Below, piece after piece: positions 11,863 through 42,620 of a DNA stretch of 64,000 bases. A model generated the notes under the pieces. The model was not told where the DNA came from. It ran no database searches and saw only the letters and a program-made list of their open reading frames with translations. The stretch's first letter is position 1; each line of letters starts with the position of its first letter. Source of the stretch: a bacterium (GTDB lineage Bacteria > Patescibacteriota > Dojkabacteria > SC72). The translations under genes and the position numbers were made by a program. Where the stretch lies: positions 169,281 to 233,280 of the forward strand of contig JALHDC010000001.1 of the NCBI GenBank assembly GCA_022840695.1, in the 5' to 3' direction.

Positions 11863-12150
11863 GCGCAAGTATTACTAGATGATTGCACTTACTTTTTAAG
11901 TAAGTGAGGAAAGTCCGGACTCCTTAAAAGGGTGCCAACGAGAGTTGGGAGGGAGTGATCTTTCGGAGAAAAGGGCAGCAGAAAGATATACCGCCTAATT
12001 TATTAGGTAAGGGTGAAATGGTAGTGTAAGAGACTACCGGGTATTGTAGTAATACAGTATCGCGAGGTAACCCCCACCTGGAGCAAGGTTAAACCGCATA
12101 GACAGATAATCATCGTTATACAGAATCCGGCTTATTGTGTACTTGCGTAT
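11863..12150 (+). ncRNA. rnpB: RNase P RNA (bacterial type, compact, about 288 nt)
   Basis: Conserved P4 strands GAGGAAAGTCCGG (5' side) and ACAGAATCCGGCTTAT (3' side) are present. The P1 helix is cgcaagta (11864-11871) paired with tacttgcg (12140-12147). Contains GGTAACCCCCACCTGGAGCAAGG-type conserved loops. Confidence 0.8.
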
Positions 12151-12854: not shown

Positions 12855-14201
12855 GTGGAGAAAGAAAATTTCTTTGAAGAGGGAGGTTCAGGTGTTGCAA
12901 AAAGAATTGATAGGGAAGATCTTGTTGTAAAAAGTATTCAGGGAGAGGAATTAGAAGCCTCAAATATTGAAAATAAATTAGATGAGAACGATAATAATTT
13001 AAACGGGTTTCCCAAAAAAGAGACTGCTAATACAAATGTAGAATCTTCTCAAATGGTAATGGATAAAACACAAAGGGTATTATACTCAAAGAAAAATCAA
13101 GAATATTGGACAGATAAAAAAGATTCTTCTTTGGAGAGTGCCTATGCGATGATTGCTCCTGATATTCCTCTTGTCAATGTTGAACATAAAGAATTATTTT
13201 TGGAAAAATGTGCCAAATATTATAAAGAAATGGAACAAGATGCTCTTGGCATAAAGAAGATTGACAGATGGGATGAATATGAAATAGAAAGAATGTTTGG
13301 AAAAGGTCTAAATCCTACTTCTTTGAAAACAGCATTGAATAATATTAAATATCTTGTTGAAAATATTTCTTCTGATAACGATACCGTAAGGGTAGTAGAA
13401 TTTGGACCAGGTTCTGGGTGGTCAACATTGATGTTGAGAAATCAGCTACATAAGAAATTTCCTAATAAGAAAATAGAATTAATAAGTGTTGATAAATCAC
13501 CACATTCTGTTGTTGCTACTCAAAATTCTTTAGATTATTATGAAATTCCATGGCAGACAGAAATTAGGGATGGAAATGTTGAAACTATTCCAGATAAGGA
13601 CAAATATGTGACATTGGTCCTTGATGATTTTGTTGAGTTTGCTAATAAACAACCAAATAATTATTTTGATGGTTATTTTTCTAGTCATGGGACTGCATAT
13701 CTGTCTGAACAAGAATATGAGAAATTGTTAGCTTCAATAAAAACAAACGGAAAACCTGGTGCTGTTTTTGTTGCTGACTCACTAGATCCTCTTTATACAG
13801 TGAAATTGGATACATTACATTTGGTATTGTGTTCTATCTTCCCTTCTATCAGCAAGAATATGCAAGAATATACATATGGGAAAAGTCTATTAAGTAATTC
13901 TAAGTATTTTCCTGGACAAGAGGTAAAGAAACTAACAAGAGTACACAATGCCGAATCGGAGCTTTTTTATAATTGGAATAATTATCTTTTGTCAAAATTA
14001 AAGCTGAAGTATATATTACAGATGCTTAAATCTATTCGTATTACTACAGATGTTATTGAGGAGTATCGAGAAGACGTATATCCTTCCTATTTAGTTAATA
14101 ATCTTGTGAAGAAAGAAGCTTTGAATAATTGGGAAGAAATGAAGAATCTCCCCGAGTGTCCACTTTACATAACTAATTGTGCATTTAGGTTAAAGAAGTA
14201 A
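12855..14201 (+). CDS. Hypothetical protein with a class I SAM-dependent methyltransferase-like fold. Start codon uncertain: GTG at 12855, or an internal ATG.
   Basis: Motif I-like VVEFGPGSGWSTLML followed by the acidic ELISVDKS. The stop lies 2 nt before the HK start. Confidence 0.4.
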   Translation: MEKENFFEEGGSGVAKRIDREDLVVKSIQGEELEASNIENKLDENDNNLNGFPKKETANTNVESSQMVMDKTQRVLYSKKNQEYWTDKKDSSLESAYAMIAPDIPLVNVEHKELFLEKCAKYYKEMEQDALGIKKIDRWDEYEIERMFGKGLNPTSLKTALNNIKYLVENISSDNDTVRVVEFGPGSGWSTLMLRNQLHKKFPNKKIELISVDKSPHSVVATQNSLDYYEIPWQTEIRDGNVETIPDKDKYVTLVLDDFVEFANKQPNNYFDGYFSSHGTAYLSEQEYEKLLASIKTNGKPGAVFVADSLDPLYTVKLDTLHLVLCSIFPSISKNMQEYTYGKSLLSNSKYFPGQEVKKLTRVHNAESELFYNWNNYLLSKLKLKYILQMLKSIRITTDVIEEYREDVYPSYLVNNLVKKEALNNWEEMKNLPECPLYITNCAFRLKK

Positions 14202-14202
14202 T

Positions 14203-16434
14203 ATGACTGATTTGATCGGATTCATAAATCTGTCCTCCGGTATAATTCAAATATTGATGGGAATATTTGTTTTCTTGTCAGATACAACTAATAAAGTTAA
14301 AAAATATTACTTCGCATCAGCATTATTCCTAGGACTTTGGTCTTTATCTATATTTTTCTATTCTAATCCGATCATTTTAGATACAACTAATTGGTTGAAG
14401 ATTGTTTATACTATGGCATATTGCATGACTTTGGGATTGATTCTATTTGCAAGAGTTTATCCTAACGAATTAGAAAGAAAATTCAAGACATTCTTTTTTC
14501 TAGTTAGCACCTATATGTTAATATTTACTGCTATTTTGTGGCTGTCAGATTGGATACTCGTCTCGTCATACAATATATCAAAGGAATTTAACAGTATTGC
14601 GACAATGGGTCCCTTATATTTTTGGTATGGTCTCCCAGAATTTGTAACTGGAATATATATCGTCGGCTATTATCTTAATAGAATTAAGACACTGTCAGGA
14701 TTAGAGAAAAAGCAGGTTCAATATTATGTAATAGGTGGAGTTCTTATGTTAATTCCTGTGATAATATTTGACTTTGTACTTCCATTAGTTTGGAATGATA
14801 CAAGATATTATAAATTTGGAACGATAGGAAATGCAGTTTGGACAATGATAGTTGGATATTCTATCTTAACTACACGCTTTTTAGATACACGTGTTGTAAT
14901 CGGAAAGATCATAGGATCTATTCTAAAAACAGTATTTGTTTTCTCAATATTATCTGTATTGATATTTATAGTTGATCCTAAATGGGAGATAAGCTTTACT
15001 TTGTCAGGGTTGGTTAAATTAATAATTCTTTCTCTCCCAGTGGCATTGCTTTTAGAAAACATACTAAAAAGTATCGAGCAATTCCTTACAGAAAGATTTG
15101 TTTATGTAAAATATCATCCAATAAAAAGTTTGAGATTATTCATAAACAAGAATCTTGAAACAGTTGAGTTTGGAGATATTGTAAATAACTTAACCAGTTT
15201 AATAGAAGATTCTTTAAAACCTGGGTTTGTAAGGATCCTTCTATTTGATTCTTCTGGTAAATTGTTAATAAATACCGGAAAAGGGGATAAAAGTATGGAT
15301 ACCAGTAATATTATGGAGATTTTGGAAGTTTGGAATAGATTGAATAGTAATAGGATCTTAATTTTTTCAGAACTTAAAAATTATAAAAAAGTTGGAAAAA
15401 GTATCATAGATGAAAAAAGAGAATCGATACTATCATTTATGAAGACCAACTCTATAGAAGTGATATTTTCTTTGAAAGAACAGAATAAGTTTAATGGAGT
15501 TGTAATTGTTGGAGAGAATTATGATCGGGATGTATATACTGTTGGGGACATTGAATTCTTAGATAATATTATTCAAAATGCGCATATGTCCTTAGTAAGG
15601 GCATTTCTGTATTTAGAACTTCAACAATTCAACCAGACCCTCCAACAAAAAGTAAACCAACAAACAAAAGAATTACAAGTAAAAGTAAAACAATTACAAG
15701 AAGCAAGAAAAAAGGAAAGAGATATGATAGACATAATGGGTCAATTCACAGATGATGTACTAAATGATAAGGATAAATTCGAACTATACATTAAGAGAAT
15801 CAAAACAGCAGTTGATAATGAAATAAAATTAATTAATACTCTCCTTAGTAGTGCTAAGTTGGAAGGAGATAAAATAGAACTTAATCCTGAGAAAATTAAT
15901 ATTGTAGAAGATATAGAAATGGCTATACATGGACATGAAATAGAGGCTAAAGATAAAGGATTAGGATTAGTAAATAATGTATCTAAAGACACTCCAGAAA
16001 TATATGCAGATCATGCCAGAGTAATAGAAGTTCTTAACAACCTAGTAAGTAATGCTGTTAAATATACAAGTAAGGGTTCTGTAACCATATCCTCTAATCA
16101 TACAGAAGATGTAGTAAGCATATCTGTAGAAGATACAGGAAAAGGAATTCCTGAGGAAGAACTTTCAAAGTTAGGTCAAAAATTCTACAGAATTCAAAAC
16201 TATATAAGTGAGGAAGAGGGTAAACCAGATTTAGTAAGGCCAGGAGGAACAGGATTAGGCCTATATGTTACATTTGGTTTAGTAGAAAAGATGGGAGGAA
16301 AAATGGAAGTCGAAAGTGAAGTAGGAAAGGGTACGAAATTTACATTCTCTCTTCCTAGATACAATAATCAAGATAATGGAATTACAAAAGTAAATAGTAG
16401 GGATATGTTTCAAAGATTAGGACTTAAGAGATAG
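14203..16434 (+). CDS. Sensor histidine kinase with a polytopic (7-8 TM) N-terminal sensor domain
   Basis: 743 aa. About eight hydrophobic helices in the first 300 aa. Coiled coil (QQFNQTLQQKVNQQTKELQVKVKQLQE). HATPase_c G-boxes DTGKGIPEEEL and GGTGLGLYVTFGLVEKMGGKMEVESEVGKGTKFTFSLP. Confidence 0.8.
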   Translation: MTDLIGFINLSSGIIQILMGIFVFLSDTTNKVKKYYFASALFLGLWSLSIFFYSNPIILDTTNWLKIVYTMAYCMTLGLILFARVYPNELERKFKTFFFLVSTYMLIFTAILWLSDWILVSSYNISKEFNSIATMGPLYFWYGLPEFVTGIYIVGYYLNRIKTLSGLEKKQVQYYVIGGVLMLIPVIIFDFVLPLVWNDTRYYKFGTIGNAVWTMIVGYSILTTRFLDTRVVIGKIIGSILKTVFVFSILSVLIFIVDPKWEISFTLSGLVKLIILSLPVALLLENILKSIEQFLTERFVYVKYHPIKSLRLFINKNLETVEFGDIVNNLTSLIEDSLKPGFVRILLFDSSGKLLINTGKGDKSMDTSNIMEILEVWNRLNSNRILIFSELKNYKKVGKSIIDEKRESILSFMKTNSIEVIFSLKEQNKFNGVVIVGENYDRDVYTVGDIEFLDNIIQNAHMSLVRAFLYLELQQFNQTLQQKVNQQTKELQVKVKQLQEARKKERDMIDIMGQFTDDVLNDKDKFELYIKRIKTAVDNEIKLINTLLSSAKLEGDKIELNPEKINIVEDIEMAIHGHEIEAKDKGLGLVNNVSKDTPEIYADHARVIEVLNNLVSNAVKYTSKGSVTISSNHTEDVVSISVEDTGKGIPEEELSKLGQKFYRIQNYISEEEGKPDLVRPGGTGLGLYVTFGLVEKMGGKMEVESEVGKGTKFTFSLPRYNNQDNGITKVNSRDMFQRLGLKR

Positions 16435-16460: not shown

Positions 16461-17246
16461 TTAAATAAAAGTTTTCTCAAATAGTATTTTGTGCCATCTA
16501 CTGGGATATTTTTCTATCAAGATTTTACCCAAAATCCAAGAAAAAAAATGAGGATCTTCTAGAACTGAATCTTCCTCTTTTAGGTTCTTTTTCCTTTCTT
16601 TCTTTAAATGTTCTTGGAGAAATCTTGTAATTTTTTTATTCATTATAGAAAAATGTGTTGGGGCATATTTCCTAGAAAATTCATACTCAGTACAAAAGGC
16701 AAAAAGCTCTGAAAAATTTTTATATGATGGGATAAAAAATTTTTGTTCAAGGTTAGTTTCTTTATTCTTATATAACTTGATACTTGTATCTAGTATATTT
16801 ACTATTTCTTCTCTATCGGAATAATAGAATGGATTTTTATTATTGAAATATATATGGGCATATTCATGTATTATTGTCGCAATGCAACTCTCTTGATTTG
16901 TATAGATAGTCCCCAAGTTTCTTTGTAATTTGGAGAAATCGGAGCACAACCCTCCTGATATAATGTTTTGGATTTTATAATCTTTAGAAAAATATTTTCT
17001 AAAATCTTCTCCCTGTCTTAAATATGCACTCCATCCTTGTTTTGTTTTATCAAGAACATTCTCTTTATGAGGAATTTTTGACAGTTTGATATTTGAGTCA
17101 ATATTTTTATAAACATATAAGTTGTGATCATCAAAACTAACGATAGTAACTGTTTTAAGAATATTTCTATCTTTAAAGATAGTGGCTAATGAATTTGATG
17201 ATATGTATTGAATAGCTTTTTCTATTAATTCTGTATCACTTAACAT
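16461..17246 (-). CDS. Hypothetical HExxH-motif protein (putative zinc metallopeptidase-like) downstream of the rSAM-precursor pair
   Basis: 261 aa, soluble. IIHEYAHIYF contains HExxH. Same strand as, and 75 nt downstream of, the precursor gene. Confidence 0.35.
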   Translation of the reverse strand: MLSDTELIEKAIQYISSNSLATIFKDRNILKTVTIVSFDDHNLYVYKNIDSNIKLSKIPHKENVLDKTKQGWSAYLRQGEDFRKYFSKDYKIQNIISGGLCSDFSKLQRNLGTIYTNQESCIATIIHEYAHIYFNNKNPFYYSDREEIVNILDTSIKLYKNKETNLEQKFFIPSYKNFSELFAFCTEYEFSRKYAPTHFSIMNKKITRFLQEHLKKERKKNLKEEDSVLEDPHFFSWILGKILIEKYPSRWHKILFEKTFI

Positions 17247-17321
17247 AGGTAAATTCTTAACAGTAAAAATTAGAGGGGGAAGAAACCATATTTGCTGTCT
17301 TGTGGCTCCCCCTTTAGGTAA

Positions 17322-17477
17322 TTAATCGTGTGGATCACAGTCTGGATTACAATTACCCAATGGACCACAGTTAGGATTACAATCAAGCTGGGTGGGGATT
17401 AGTGAATCAGGTGATACACAAAGTACCATTGGATCTTCACTTTGATTTGCAATTACAATGCTTTTTAGGGTATCCAT
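17322..17477 (-). CDS. Cys-rich RiPP precursor peptide candidate (51 aa from the ATG at 17477; an alternative GTG at 17513 gives 63 aa)
   Basis: Manual reverse translation gives MDTLKSIVIANQSEDPMVLCVSPDSLIPTQLD-CNPNCGPLGNCNPDCDPHD. An AAGGAG RBS lies 7 nt upstream of the ATG. The gene lies 36 nt downstream of the rSAM stop on the same strand. Confidence 0.55.
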   Translation of the reverse strand: MDTLKSIVIANQSEDPMVLCVSPDSLIPTQLDCNPNCGPLGNCNPDCDPHD

Positions 17478-17513
17478 TTCTTTGCTCCTTTCTTTTTTGT
17501 TTAATTTTGTCAC

Positions 17514-18776
17514 TCACTCATTAAGAAGATTGTATGTCAAACCTTTCTCTGTATATTTCCAAGTGCCTTTACCCCATTCTCCTGTGTATGGATTATATGT
17601 ACATCTTGGATTGGGATATTTAAAAAATGAATCTATCACCTCGTAGGATGTTGCTGCAAGGGGCCTACAATCTGTACATACATATCGGTACTCACAATCT
17701 TGGCAAACTAAGATTTGATCTTTCGTTATAGATCTAATTTTTTCTGTCACAGGATCTGAAATAATATCTTCCAGAGTCTGAGATTTAATATTCCCAAGCA
17801 CTTTCTCTCTTGAAAAGACACATGGAATTACATCTCCAGTATCTATTATAGCCAATCTGTTGGACAAACAAGCATTAGAAACCTTATTTGAGAGGAATTT
17901 CTCTTTTGTTGTAATAAAATTTGGTGCCATAAAGAATCCATACTTCTTCATTGAATTTAATGATGGAGTTAGTAAGGAATCTATGCCTTTGCCAACAGGA
18001 CGAATAGGATCTGGTTTTCTATATTTAACTCCCAAGGATTTTAAGTATTCAACTGTTTCTTCTATGGTTTCTTCATTAATTGACATCAGGACAACTTCGA
18101 CTCTTACATTTATGTCCAAAGATATAAGTTTGTTTATAGCCTTCAATGATCTTTGCAGACTTCCTTGTTCTCCAGTAATTCTGTCATGTATCTTTTCATC
18201 TCTGGAATATATAGAAGTGGCTATCTTTACATTTAAATCTGAGATTTCTCTAATCTGTTTTTCAGATATTATTTGTGTATTTGTAAATATTTCAATGTCT
18301 GAGAAACCAACCTCCTTGGCATACATGACTAAGTCTATAAGATCTTTGTCCTCTTGGTGAAATAAGAAAGGTTCTCCGCCAATAAATTGACACCTTTTAA
18401 TCCCAAGGTTGTATGCTTGAGATATTGCATCTTTCCAGTTTTCAAAAGTTAGGGAATTTACTCTTTTTTGCGATTTTGAGTTCTGACCAATACAGCAATG
18501 TTTACATTTTAAATTACAAGAATTAGTGGCGATTTCGAACCATATAAAGGAAGGTTTATTAACAGTAACCTCTTGAATTTCTTCATGTTTATTCTTCTCT
18601 GAGGTTTGAAATATATTAAGTTTGGCTAATTCTTCTAAGAAAGATTGGTCGTGTTTCTTAAATAGCCTGGTCGCGACTTTATTTAGGGAATAAACTTTTC
18701 CACTATTACCATCGCAAATTGTTGAGTTTTTTGCTCCCTCTACAAAATAAACATTATTTAGTAGATTGTACTTCAT
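17514..18776 (-). CDS. Radical SAM enzyme with a C-terminal SPASM domain (peptide-modifying maturase candidate)
   Basis: CNLKCKHC (CxxxCxxC) at residues ~87-94. GGEPFLF SAM-binding motif. C-terminal Cys cluster C..C(x32)CQDCEYRYVCTDCR..C typical of SPASM auxiliary clusters. An ~85-aa N-terminal region precedes the core (possibly a precursor-recognition RRE domain). Confidence 0.85.
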   Translation of the reverse strand: MKYNLLNNVYFVEGAKNSTICDGNSGKVYSLNKVATRLFKKHDQSFLEELAKLNIFQTSEKNKHEEIQEVTVNKPSFIWFEIATNSCNLKCKHCCIGQNSKSQKRVNSLTFENWKDAISQAYNLGIKRCQFIGGEPFLFHQEDKDLIDLVMYAKEVGFSDIEIFTNTQIISEKQIREISDLNVKIATSIYSRDEKIHDRITGEQGSLQRSLKAINKLISLDINVRVEVVLMSINEETIEETVEYLKSLGVKYRKPDPIRPVGKGIDSLLTPSLNSMKKYGFFMAPNFITTKEKFLSNKVSNACLSNRLAIIDTGDVIPCVFSREKVLGNIKSQTLEDIISDPVTEKIRSITKDQILVCQDCEYRYVCTDCRPLAATSYEVIDSFFKYPNPRCTYNPYTGEWGKGTWKYTEKGLTYNLLNE

Positions 18777-21881: not shown

Positions 21882-22313
21882 CTAGACCTTCGTCCATCGA
21901 TAATCCGAAGGCTTTTTGACGATGCCATCACGAACCGGATTCTGTTTGATATAGCTTAACACCCGCATCTGGTTCTTTTTGTATGGCAAGTAATTGGCAC
22001 TGTACCTTCCTTGAAAGATGTGGCCAACTCTATTTCTTTTTCTGTTTATGTTAACAGCATAACTAGTGGTGACTCTTTGCATATAATTTGATAATTTTTT
22101 AGGATCCTTTCCTGTTTTTATCAAGAGATGAAAATGATTATCCATAATACAATAACTTACAAGCTTTATTTCGCAAATATCTTTGTTCTTGTAAAGTTGA
22201 TTGATGAACAAATTCTTGTCATCAGCATATTTAAATACTTCTTCCTTGTTGTTTCCACGATTGTATACATGGTAAAAACTATTCGGTTTGTAATTCCTTG
22301 GAGCTCTGGCCAT
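21882..22313 (-). mobile_element. REP-associated tyrosine transposase (RAYT, TnpA_REP; IS200/IS605-like Y1 HUH transposase), 143 aa
   Basis: FYHVYNRGNNKEEVF, HUH motif MDNHFHLLI, GHIFQGRY, YIKQNPVRDGIV..PSDYRW. These match the RayT/YafM-type consensus and the gene is flanked by inverted REP-like repeats. Confidence 0.8.
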
Positions 22314-28409: not shown

Positions 28410-28484
28410 GCCGCTATCGTCTAACGGTTAGGACACAGGATTCTCAATCCTGCAATCGGGGTTCGATTCCCCGTAGCGGTACCA
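28410..28484 (+). tRNA. tRNA-Glu (anticodon CUC), CCA encoded
   Basis: Cloverleaf read by hand: acceptor gccgcta/tagcggt, D arm tcgtctaacggttaggaca, anticodon stem cagga/tcctg with loop ttCTCaa, T arm ggggttcgattcccc, then ACCA. Confidence 0.85.
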
Positions 28485-42524: not shown

Positions 42525-42598
42525 CGGGGTGTAGTTCAGATGGCTAGAACGCTTGCATGGGGTGCAAGAGGTCGCTCGTTCAAGTCGAGTCACCCCGA
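42525..42598 (+). tRNA. tRNA-Pro (anticodon GGG), CCA not encoded
   Basis: Cloverleaf read by hand: acceptor cggggtg/caccccg, D arm gttcagatggctagaac, anticodon stem cttgc/gcaag with loop atGGGgt, T arm gctcgttcaagtcgagt. Preceded by tataatatcaa. Confidence 0.8.
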
Positions 42599-42620
42599 CT
42601 CCTAATGAATATCTCAATAA

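Follow-up and report, generated by a model that had tools for sequence, protein, structure and literature searches.

A candidate three-gene RiPP-type cassette pairing radical SAM/SPASM enzymes with Cys-x-Pro repeat peptides in Dojkabacteria and other bacteria

What does a radical S-adenosylmethionine (SAM) enzyme modify when it is encoded beside a very short, Cys-rich open reading frame (ORF), and which chemistry does it bring to that peptide? The question is raised by a Dojkabacteria genome (GenBank assembly GCA_022840695.1), of which a stretch of 64,000 nucleotides was analysed (contig JALHDC010000001.1, positions 169,281 to 233,280; hereafter the window, in whose own coordinates all positions are given). 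New crosslink chemistry is known to come from radical SAM enzymes with a SPASM domain that act beside Cys-rich peptides. The family described here is common among the very small genomes of candidate-phyla bacteria, in which each kept gene needs explaining. An earlier, sequence-only reading had proposed a radical SAM/SPASM peptide maturase beside its own Cys-rich precursor at 17322..18776. The features that it described are all present, on the minus strand, which it had not stated, and the pairing is supported by our analyses. The best reading of the locus is a three-gene cassette of the type that makes RiPPs (peptides synthesized on the ribosome and modified after translation), consisting of the enzyme, its substrate peptide and a peptidase. 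From our genomic and structural comparisons we consider it moderately likely that this cassette installs Cys-based thioether crosslinks, with one ring per C-x-P unit of the peptide.

The enzyme of 420 amino acids is encoded at 17514..18776, stop codon included, and its gene runs from 18776 to 17514 on the minus strand, ending in TGA. It carries the radical SAM cluster motif C87-N-L-K-C91-K-H-C94 (18495..18518), the sequence FIGGEPF at residues 131-137, and a C-terminal SPASM domain (17601..17870) with the motif C358-Q-D-C361-E-Y-R-Y-V-C367-T-D-C370-R, flanked by C303, C319 and C392. Both domains score above the Pfam gathering thresholds (PF04055 Radical_SAM, 72.3 bits vs 29.5, E=6.8e-20; PF13186 SPASM, 37.5 bits vs 21.5, E=2.9e-9), which together with the motifs confirms the CxxxCxxC, GGEP and multi-Cys SPASM assignments made earlier. 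The SPASM region follows the seven-Cys pattern (C303-x10-G314-x4-C319, C358xxC361x5C367xxC370, C392), with a last spacing of CX2C rather than CX3C. Exactly ten Cys are conserved in 79 family members from several phyla, namely the three of the SAM cluster (100%) and the seven of the SPASM domain (99-100%), and there is no eighth SPASM Cys. Two [4Fe-4S] clusters need eight ligands, so that one auxiliary iron would be open or would have a non-Cys ligand. Work on CteB is said to have shown that in thioether synthases the substrate Cys binds at such an open auxiliary-cluster site. The N-terminal residues 1-58 (18603..18776, minus strand) are predicted by structure modelling to adopt a fold resembling the leader-binding RiPP recognition element (RRE). 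Some distant enzyme relatives have a fused PqqD domain, which indicates a peptide-modifying context.

The precursor gene (17322..17477, stop codon included) begins on the same strand with an ATG at 17477, 36 nt past the TGA of the enzyme gene. The Shine-Dalgarno-like AAGGAG lies 7 nt 5' of this ATG and reads from 17490 to 17485 on the minus strand, so both the spacing and the ribosome-binding site noticed in the sequence-only reading are borne out. The peptide has 51 residues, MDTLKSIVIANQSEDPMVLCVSPDSLIPTQLDCNPNCGPLGNCNPDCDPHD. Its leader region (residues 1-32, 17382..17477) contains P16-M-V-L-C-V-S-P23 (17409..17432), and its core (residues 33-51, 17325..17381) is CNPNCGPLGNCNPDCDPHD. The core had been credited with five Cys in its 19 residues; it holds four, the fifth (C20) being situated in the leader. 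Each of the four opens a C-x-P triplet: C33NP, C37GP, C43NP and C47DP. When all 2321 stop-to-stop segments in the six frames of the window were considered, the precursor was the only one with at least two C-x-P per 40 residues, and it has four.

A direct search with the 51-residue peptide found only itself, and its relatives were located solely through the neighbours of enzyme homologues. The same gene was called in two other assemblies of the organism. The window peptide matched none of the NCBIfam families, and a search of Pfam and NCBIfam with this peptide and four homologous precursors gave only a weak, sub-threshold match to a Cys-Gly-Pro-rich sperm protein family. The peptides beside the enzymes of five closer relatives (L003, L033, L083, L087 and L088; enzymes 45-51% identical) end in a matching 19-residue core. 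The pattern of this Dojkabacteria clade is C-x-P-x-C-G-P-x-G-N-C-x-P-D-C-x-P-[HY]-D, with 13 of the 19 positions invariant in the six loci. Gene pairs within the clade differ by 6-11 synonymous vs 1-6 non-synonymous codon changes; the predominance of synonymous changes points to purifying selection on the protein rather than conservation of the DNA. Judged from these codon patterns, the 51-residue peptide is a conserved, translated gene.

The pairing extends far beyond this clade. In the neighbourhoods of 80 homologous enzymes, a dense C-x-P segment (at least three per 40 residues, within 1.5 kb and on the same strand) occurs at 68 loci, at 58 of which it lies immediately downstream, as in the window, and at 10 upstream. 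With at least two C-x-P the number rises to 73, whereas only four dense segments occur elsewhere in these loci (about 312 kb in six frames). Co-conservation of the peptide and the enzyme, which had been suggested as a check of the proposal, thus holds at 68-73 of the 80 loci, and the homologues nearly always adjoin a Cys-rich peptide. This near-constant partnership with Cys-x-Pro repeat peptides spans five phyla or more.

In a curated set of 52 precursors, x-Pro comes directly after 412 of the 432 Cys (95%), a share that is somewhat inflated because the precursors were partly picked by C-x-P content. An earlier filter on Cys only (at least three among the final 30 residues encoded by a small ORF in the flank) gave the same C-x-P peptides at most loci. 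Only Cys and Pro(+2) are conserved across the 52 sequences. Many different residues stand at +1 (S, R, N, Y, G, P, F, A and others) and at +3 (R, D, N, C, T, S and others, with D and N at 14% each), and +4 is not enriched for D family-wide. The units stand in tandem, mostly with 3-7 residues from Cys to Cys, as exemplified by CSPDQNCSPDQ in Woesebacteria, CWPRQQCWPRQQ in Pelosinus and CYPDCNPCSPCSPCRP in Clostridia. Cores from Negativicutes and Clostridia such as CWPRQQ or CSPCSPCRP offer no Asp or Asn acceptor, and many Microgenomates precursors end in Pro-rich tails such as PPPKPPPPKPPN. A leader motif, [ILV]-x-[LIVC]-V-[TS], typically EPTIELVT, stands 10-30 residues ahead of the first C-x-P in most precursors from the candidate phyla radiation, Chloroflexi and Clostridia, and P-M-V-L-C-V-S-P of the window peptide fits it. 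One Anaerolineales metagenome-assembled genome (MAG) has at least four different C-x-P precursor genes around a single enzyme homologue, two upstream and two downstream (L024:3328-5721, plus strand). An Anaerolineae MAG has two paralogous Cys-rich peptides upstream of its enzyme (L020:2444-3048, plus strand; e.g. ...GYCPKVDVGPGCSCNSHCACDSFCASD), which are not C-x-P repeats and represent a divergent precursor type within the family.

The sequence-only reading had overlooked a conserved third gene, which encodes a gluzincin-like HExxH protein of 261 residues at 16461..17246 on the minus strand. H127-E-x-x-H131 (16854..16868), Y133 and E180 (16707..16709) are its invariant residues. It matches no Pfam or NCBIfam family, its fold matches are peptidases, and its fold is that of gluzincins. 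Homologues accompany the enzyme and its peptide at 21 loci of candidate phyla, among them those of every close relative whose flanking sequence is long enough, and a second, unrelated HExxH-containing family holds the same place in nine more loci. Based on the modelled fold, the protein is probably a zinc peptidase that removes the leader. The neighbours of the pair differ in other lineages. In six Clostridia loci (L043, L060, L067, L068, L074 and L082) two paralogous GNAT-like acetyltransferases come after the pair, as does a Cys-rich protein of about 310 residues encoded on the opposite strand; this tailoring set differs from the candidate-phyla cassette. A DUF2238-like membrane protein is encoded beside the pair in some Sporomusa. 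In 25-27 Negativicutes genomes (within L037-L080) the pair adjoins, and is divergent from, tig-clpP-clpX upstream of the enzyme gene, a neighbourhood that may reflect inherited synteny or a functional link to proteolysis.

The enzyme family is large and is found mostly in candidate-phyla bacteria (Woese-, Roizman-, Davies- and Amesbacteria, and WWE3), with more than 700 homologues in a word-indexed database. A pattern scan with one genome per species recovered 272 genomes that encode a relative. The closest are Dojkabacteria, at 45-51% identity, and further hosts are Chloroflexi, Negativicutes (Pelosinus, Sporomusa), Clostridia, Latescibacteria, Elusimicrobia and one deltaproteobacterium. A profile search of 1.84 billion cluster representatives gave 1738 clusters (50% identity) at E<=1e-30, and the 150 of these that were listed all score at least 284 bits.

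No NCBIfam model reaches its cutoff for the window enzyme, or for relatives from Sporomusa, Pelosinus, Woesebacteria and Clostridia. The best score is that of TIGR04053 (95 bits vs a cutoff of 395), and the models for the sactipeptide maturases StsB (84.7 vs 625), AlbA (68.3 vs 850) and SkfB (55.6 vs 300) also remain below their cutoffs. The same holds for the grasp-with-SPASM model TIGR04193 (91.3 vs 175 bits), which matches only residues 292-402, and there is no ATP-grasp gene in the enzyme neighbourhood. Models of the SCIFF, PapB and QhpD types are absent from the best 25 NCBIfam matches, the weakest of which has 55 bits. The model for anaerobic sulfatase-maturating enzymes (anSMEs), TIGR03942, is likewise absent from these 25, and scores 67.8 vs its cutoff of 349 bits for the Clostridia relative L060. 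When the family profile was compared with solved structures, SkfB was best (70 bits), followed by anSME (46), SuiB (40) and CteB (37). The model searches, which had also been suggested earlier, thus set the enzyme apart from sulfatase and cofactor maturases. The proposal therefore survives the refuting condition named in the sequence-only reading, since neither such clustering nor a general lack of Cys-rich peptides beside the homologues is seen. Fold comparison gave close figures for ChlB (23.5), anSME (23.3), SkfB (23.3), SuiB (22.6), CteB (21.4, over 325 aligned residues), PqqE (20.9) and TigE (20.3), and the fold is therefore no guide to the reaction. A Protein Data Bank search with the SPASM region alone gave only a marginal BtrN match.

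The thioether reading draws on three observations: Cys is the conserved and presumably reactive residue of the substrate, the SPASM domain shows the seven-Cys pattern, and the nearest characterised enzymes by sequence are thioether synthases. In the mechanism that we propose, the leader strand PMVLCVSP, an instance of [ILV]x[LIVC]V[TS], would dock on the RRE-like domain and the C-terminal core would be fed into the active site. At each C-x-P unit a 5'-deoxyadenosyl radical would take a hydrogen from a nearby carbon, and the carbon radical would be captured by the Cys sulfur, probably while this is bound to the auxiliary cluster that lacks a fourth Cys ligand. The product would be a small in-line thioether ring per unit, four in the window peptide, after which the HExxH peptidase would remove the leader. 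With Cys and Pro(+2) as the sole conserved residues, and with Asp, Asn, Glu and Gln missing from many cores, an acceptor that does not depend on a side chain fits the family best. The substrate sequences therefore suggest that the acceptor is less likely an Asp or Asn side chain than a C-alpha of the backbone, the acceptor in sactipeptides, or a carbon of the C-x-P unit itself, possibly of Pro. In the clade of the window, N42, D46 and D51, which close three of the four units, stay candidate acceptors.

Comparison with characterised systems places the cassette within an already known kind, that of a radical SAM/SPASM maturase with a Cys-rich precursor, while setting it apart from each member. 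It resembles the ranthipeptide systems (freyrasin PapA/PapB, NxxcA/NxxcB and thermocellin CteA/CteB) in having a maturase beside a short precursor, with an N-terminal RRE or, here, a predicted RRE-like domain, and in the tandem Cys units of the core, for each of which one small thioether ring is expected. The sactipeptide maturases are its closest sequence relatives among solved or curated enzymes (SkfB profile 70, StsB 85 and AlbA 68 bits), and their sulfur-to-C-alpha chemistry, which needs no particular acceptor side chain, would suit the variable positions other than Cys and Pro. The scores are, however, far under the family cutoffs of 300-850 bits, and sactipeptide precursors are hairpins with the donor Cys in one half and the acceptors in the other, unlike the evenly spaced Cys in tandem units seen here. 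There is also a likeness to QhpD and its substrate QhpC, the gamma-subunit of quinohemoprotein amine dehydrogenase, where a small Cys-rich polypeptide receives several Cys thioethers from a radical SAM/SPASM enzyme while it is still in the cytoplasm, and is exported afterwards. The same crosslink-then-export logic would apply to the relative L032, which holds its C-x-P array inside a peptidoglycan-binding protein with a Tat-like signal. In QhpC, Asp and Glu serve as the acceptors. A signal peptide is absent from the window peptide, and no dehydrogenase genes occur here. Triceptides, the three-residue cyclophane RiPPs (e.g. of ChlB), differ in that each of their units starts from an aromatic residue engaged in a C-C bond; aromatic residues are missing from the window core, where Cys is the conserved first residue.

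The chemistry anticipated in the sequence-only reading was that of ranthipeptides such as freyrasin, and a rival of this kind (freyrasin or NxxC type) would link Cys to Asp or Asn. PapB links Cys to Asp beta-carbons in Cx3D motifs, tolerates Cys-Xn-Asp with n=0-6 (PMC9413430) and also takes C-terminal carboxylates (PMC9413430, PMC12373016). Each unit of the window peptide opens with Cys and closes with Asn or Asp, N42, D46 and D51 are invariant in the six clade members, and C-x-P-[DN] is common in candidate-phyla precursors. The logic of repeated Cx3D motifs nevertheless does not describe the family, since only one of the four units here (C47-D-P-H-D51) fits it and +3 is variable in the curated precursors. 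The residue that closes the first unit is N, D, T or I within the clade itself, and units without Asp, Asn, Glu or Gln (CSPCSPCRP, CRPICSP, CVPACQPACMP) are found beside enzymes that are still 33-45% identical. No SCIFF or ranthipeptide model of the TIGR03973/TIGR03974 type stands among the matches listed for the enzyme or the peptide. We therefore regard Cys-to-Asp/Asn chemistry as unlikely. A reaction resembling that of anSMEs, in which C-x-P is recognised and each Cys is oxidised at C-beta to formylglycine or another Cys product without a crosslink, is a serious rival, if somewhat less likely still. Its appeal is that C-x-P, the sole invariant of the substrates, is shared with the anSME target motif, the sulfatase signature C-x-P-x-R, but the Arg at +4 is missing from all four units, which have C, G, C and D instead. 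The cutoff of TIGR03942 is not approached, the profile match to anSME is weaker than that to SkfB, and no sulfatase domain is encoded within about 6 kb. In anSMEs both auxiliary clusters are fully ligated by eight Cys, against the seven conserved in this family. The substrate here is a leader-bearing repeat peptide that would be recognised through the predicted RRE-like domain of the enzyme, a domain that anSMEs do not have, and the reaction would need to leave 4-20 aldehydes on one peptide, for which we know of no precedent.

A modification that spares the thiols, such as an epimerisation or an alteration of Pro or of the residue at x, would leave a mature (C-x-P)n peptide that could serve as a metallothionein-like metal or redox buffer. 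SPASM-type radical SAM epimerases exist, and the epimerase EpeE/YydG is among the sequence and fold matches of the enzyme. The very high thiol density of the precursors, the absence of an exporter from the neighbourhood and a core that is conserved above the enzyme agree with such a role. Substrates that conserve only Cys and Pro, however, most simply mean that Cys reacts, the seven-Cys SPASM pattern suits thiolate binding, and direct evidence for a thiol-sparing change is lacking; we give it a lower rank again than the anSME-like reaction. That the small ORF is not the substrate at all, but a chance ORF or an unrelated Cys-rich protein while the enzyme acts elsewhere, might be argued from the absence of homologues in the direct search and of a family match. 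This reading is close to refuted and we consider it highly improbable: position, strand, leader motif and C-x-P content are kept beside the enzymes across phyla, synonymous changes dominate at conserved codons, the peptide is the only C-x-P-dense segment in 64 kb, and it has a ribosome-binding site.

Some points count against the cassette and thioether interpretation that we prefer over these alternatives. The formation of thioethers, the identity of the acceptor atom and the removal of the leader are inferred, and the conservation of C-x-P is somewhat overstated by the way in which the precursors were picked. The RRE call comes from predicted structure only, with no PqqD profile match to the N-terminal domain in 26 members. 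Moreover, some HExxH proteins attached to radical SAM RiPP enzymes have been shown to be zincin-like in fold and to act as alpha-ketoglutarate-dependent hydroxylases (PMC12636437). The NCBIfam scan of the HExxH protein gave no match at all, hydroxylase-type models included, and its fold matches are peptidases; a hydroxylase role was set aside on these grounds, short of formal exclusion.

The function of the peptide may be approached through its conservation. The core of the window peptide is identical to that of L003 at 15 of 19 positions, whereas the enzymes are 45% identical, and no exporter is conserved near the enzyme-peptide pair or encoded in the window neighbourhood. In the deltaproteobacterial MAG JAFGNJ010000005, a protein of 172 residues is encoded directly downstream of the enzyme homologue (L032:5254-5772, plus strand); it combines 14 C-x-P repeats with a twin-arginine-like signal (SRRGFIK) and, at its C-terminus, a PG_binding_1 domain (Pfam E=1e-13). 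This architecture implies that the C-x-P module can sit in an exported, peptidoglycan-binding protein. Together, the conservation of the core above that of the enzyme, the lack of a conserved exporter and this embedding argue for a conserved target or cellular role, e.g. in metal binding, signalling or the envelope, rather than for a fast-evolving antibiotic.

The (C-x-P)n precursor rule, the leader motif and the gluzincin-like partner appear to be new: no NCBIfam or Pfam model covers them, and no description of C-x-P repeat radical SAM peptides was found in the full-text literature, a scope that does not extend to subscription journals. We tentatively propose, as a rather unlikely idea, that the (Cys-x-Pro)n peptides and their enzymes, which are spread over candidate-phyla bacteria, Chloroflexi, Negativicutes and Clostridia, constitute a distinct, unnamed class with a crosslink new to RiPPs and a conserved cellular or envelope role other than antibiosis. 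Such a crosslink could be, for example, a three-residue thioether from Cys to Pro(+2) or to the backbone within the unit. A conserved physiological role, if true, would be an unusual use of RiPP machinery. Should the chemistry be that of ordinary Cys-Asp/Asn or sulfur-to-C-alpha thioethers, there would still be a family of precursors that is new and well defined, along with a leader motif and a peptidase partner that are new as well. The family is large (at least 272 species genomes and about 1,700 protein clusters) and apparently undescribed, and the sharpness of its substrate rule, x-Pro after 95% of the Cys, means that the modification site is easily predicted and tested.

Several other elements surround the cassette in the window. 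Just past the precursor stop, a hairpin (GGGGGAG...CUUCCCCC) followed by a U-rich stretch at 17264..17313 on the minus strand is a weak candidate for an attenuating terminator; its predicted RNA fold has -16 kcal/mol with a z-score of only -1.17, which is not significant, and a terminator scan found none and did not pick it up. The gene fmt, which had been counted as part of the operon, adjoins the enzyme in this genome only among the loci examined, and was rejected as a cassette member. Convergent with the cassette, 12855..16434 (plus strand) encodes a 448-residue protein with weak methyltransferase-like matches and then a 743-residue multi-pass membrane histidine kinase (14203..16434). A kinase is also encoded near the pair in the Dojkabacteria locus L003; of the 81 loci only 8 have one, and not in a constant position, which is too weak to claim a regulator. 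The tRNA genes tRNA-Glu(CTC) (28410..28484) and tRNA-Pro(GGG) (42525..42599) lie on the plus strand, and an Rfam scan at the gathering threshold gave the first only. At 21882..22313 (minus strand) the gene table of an identical contig lists a 143-residue ORF whose domain is that of a Y1 transposase (PF01797, IS200/IS605-type TnpA). The bacterial RNase P RNA, class A, is encoded at 11866..12149 on the plus strand (175 bits) and is shortened, with 284 nt vs the 367 positions of the model.

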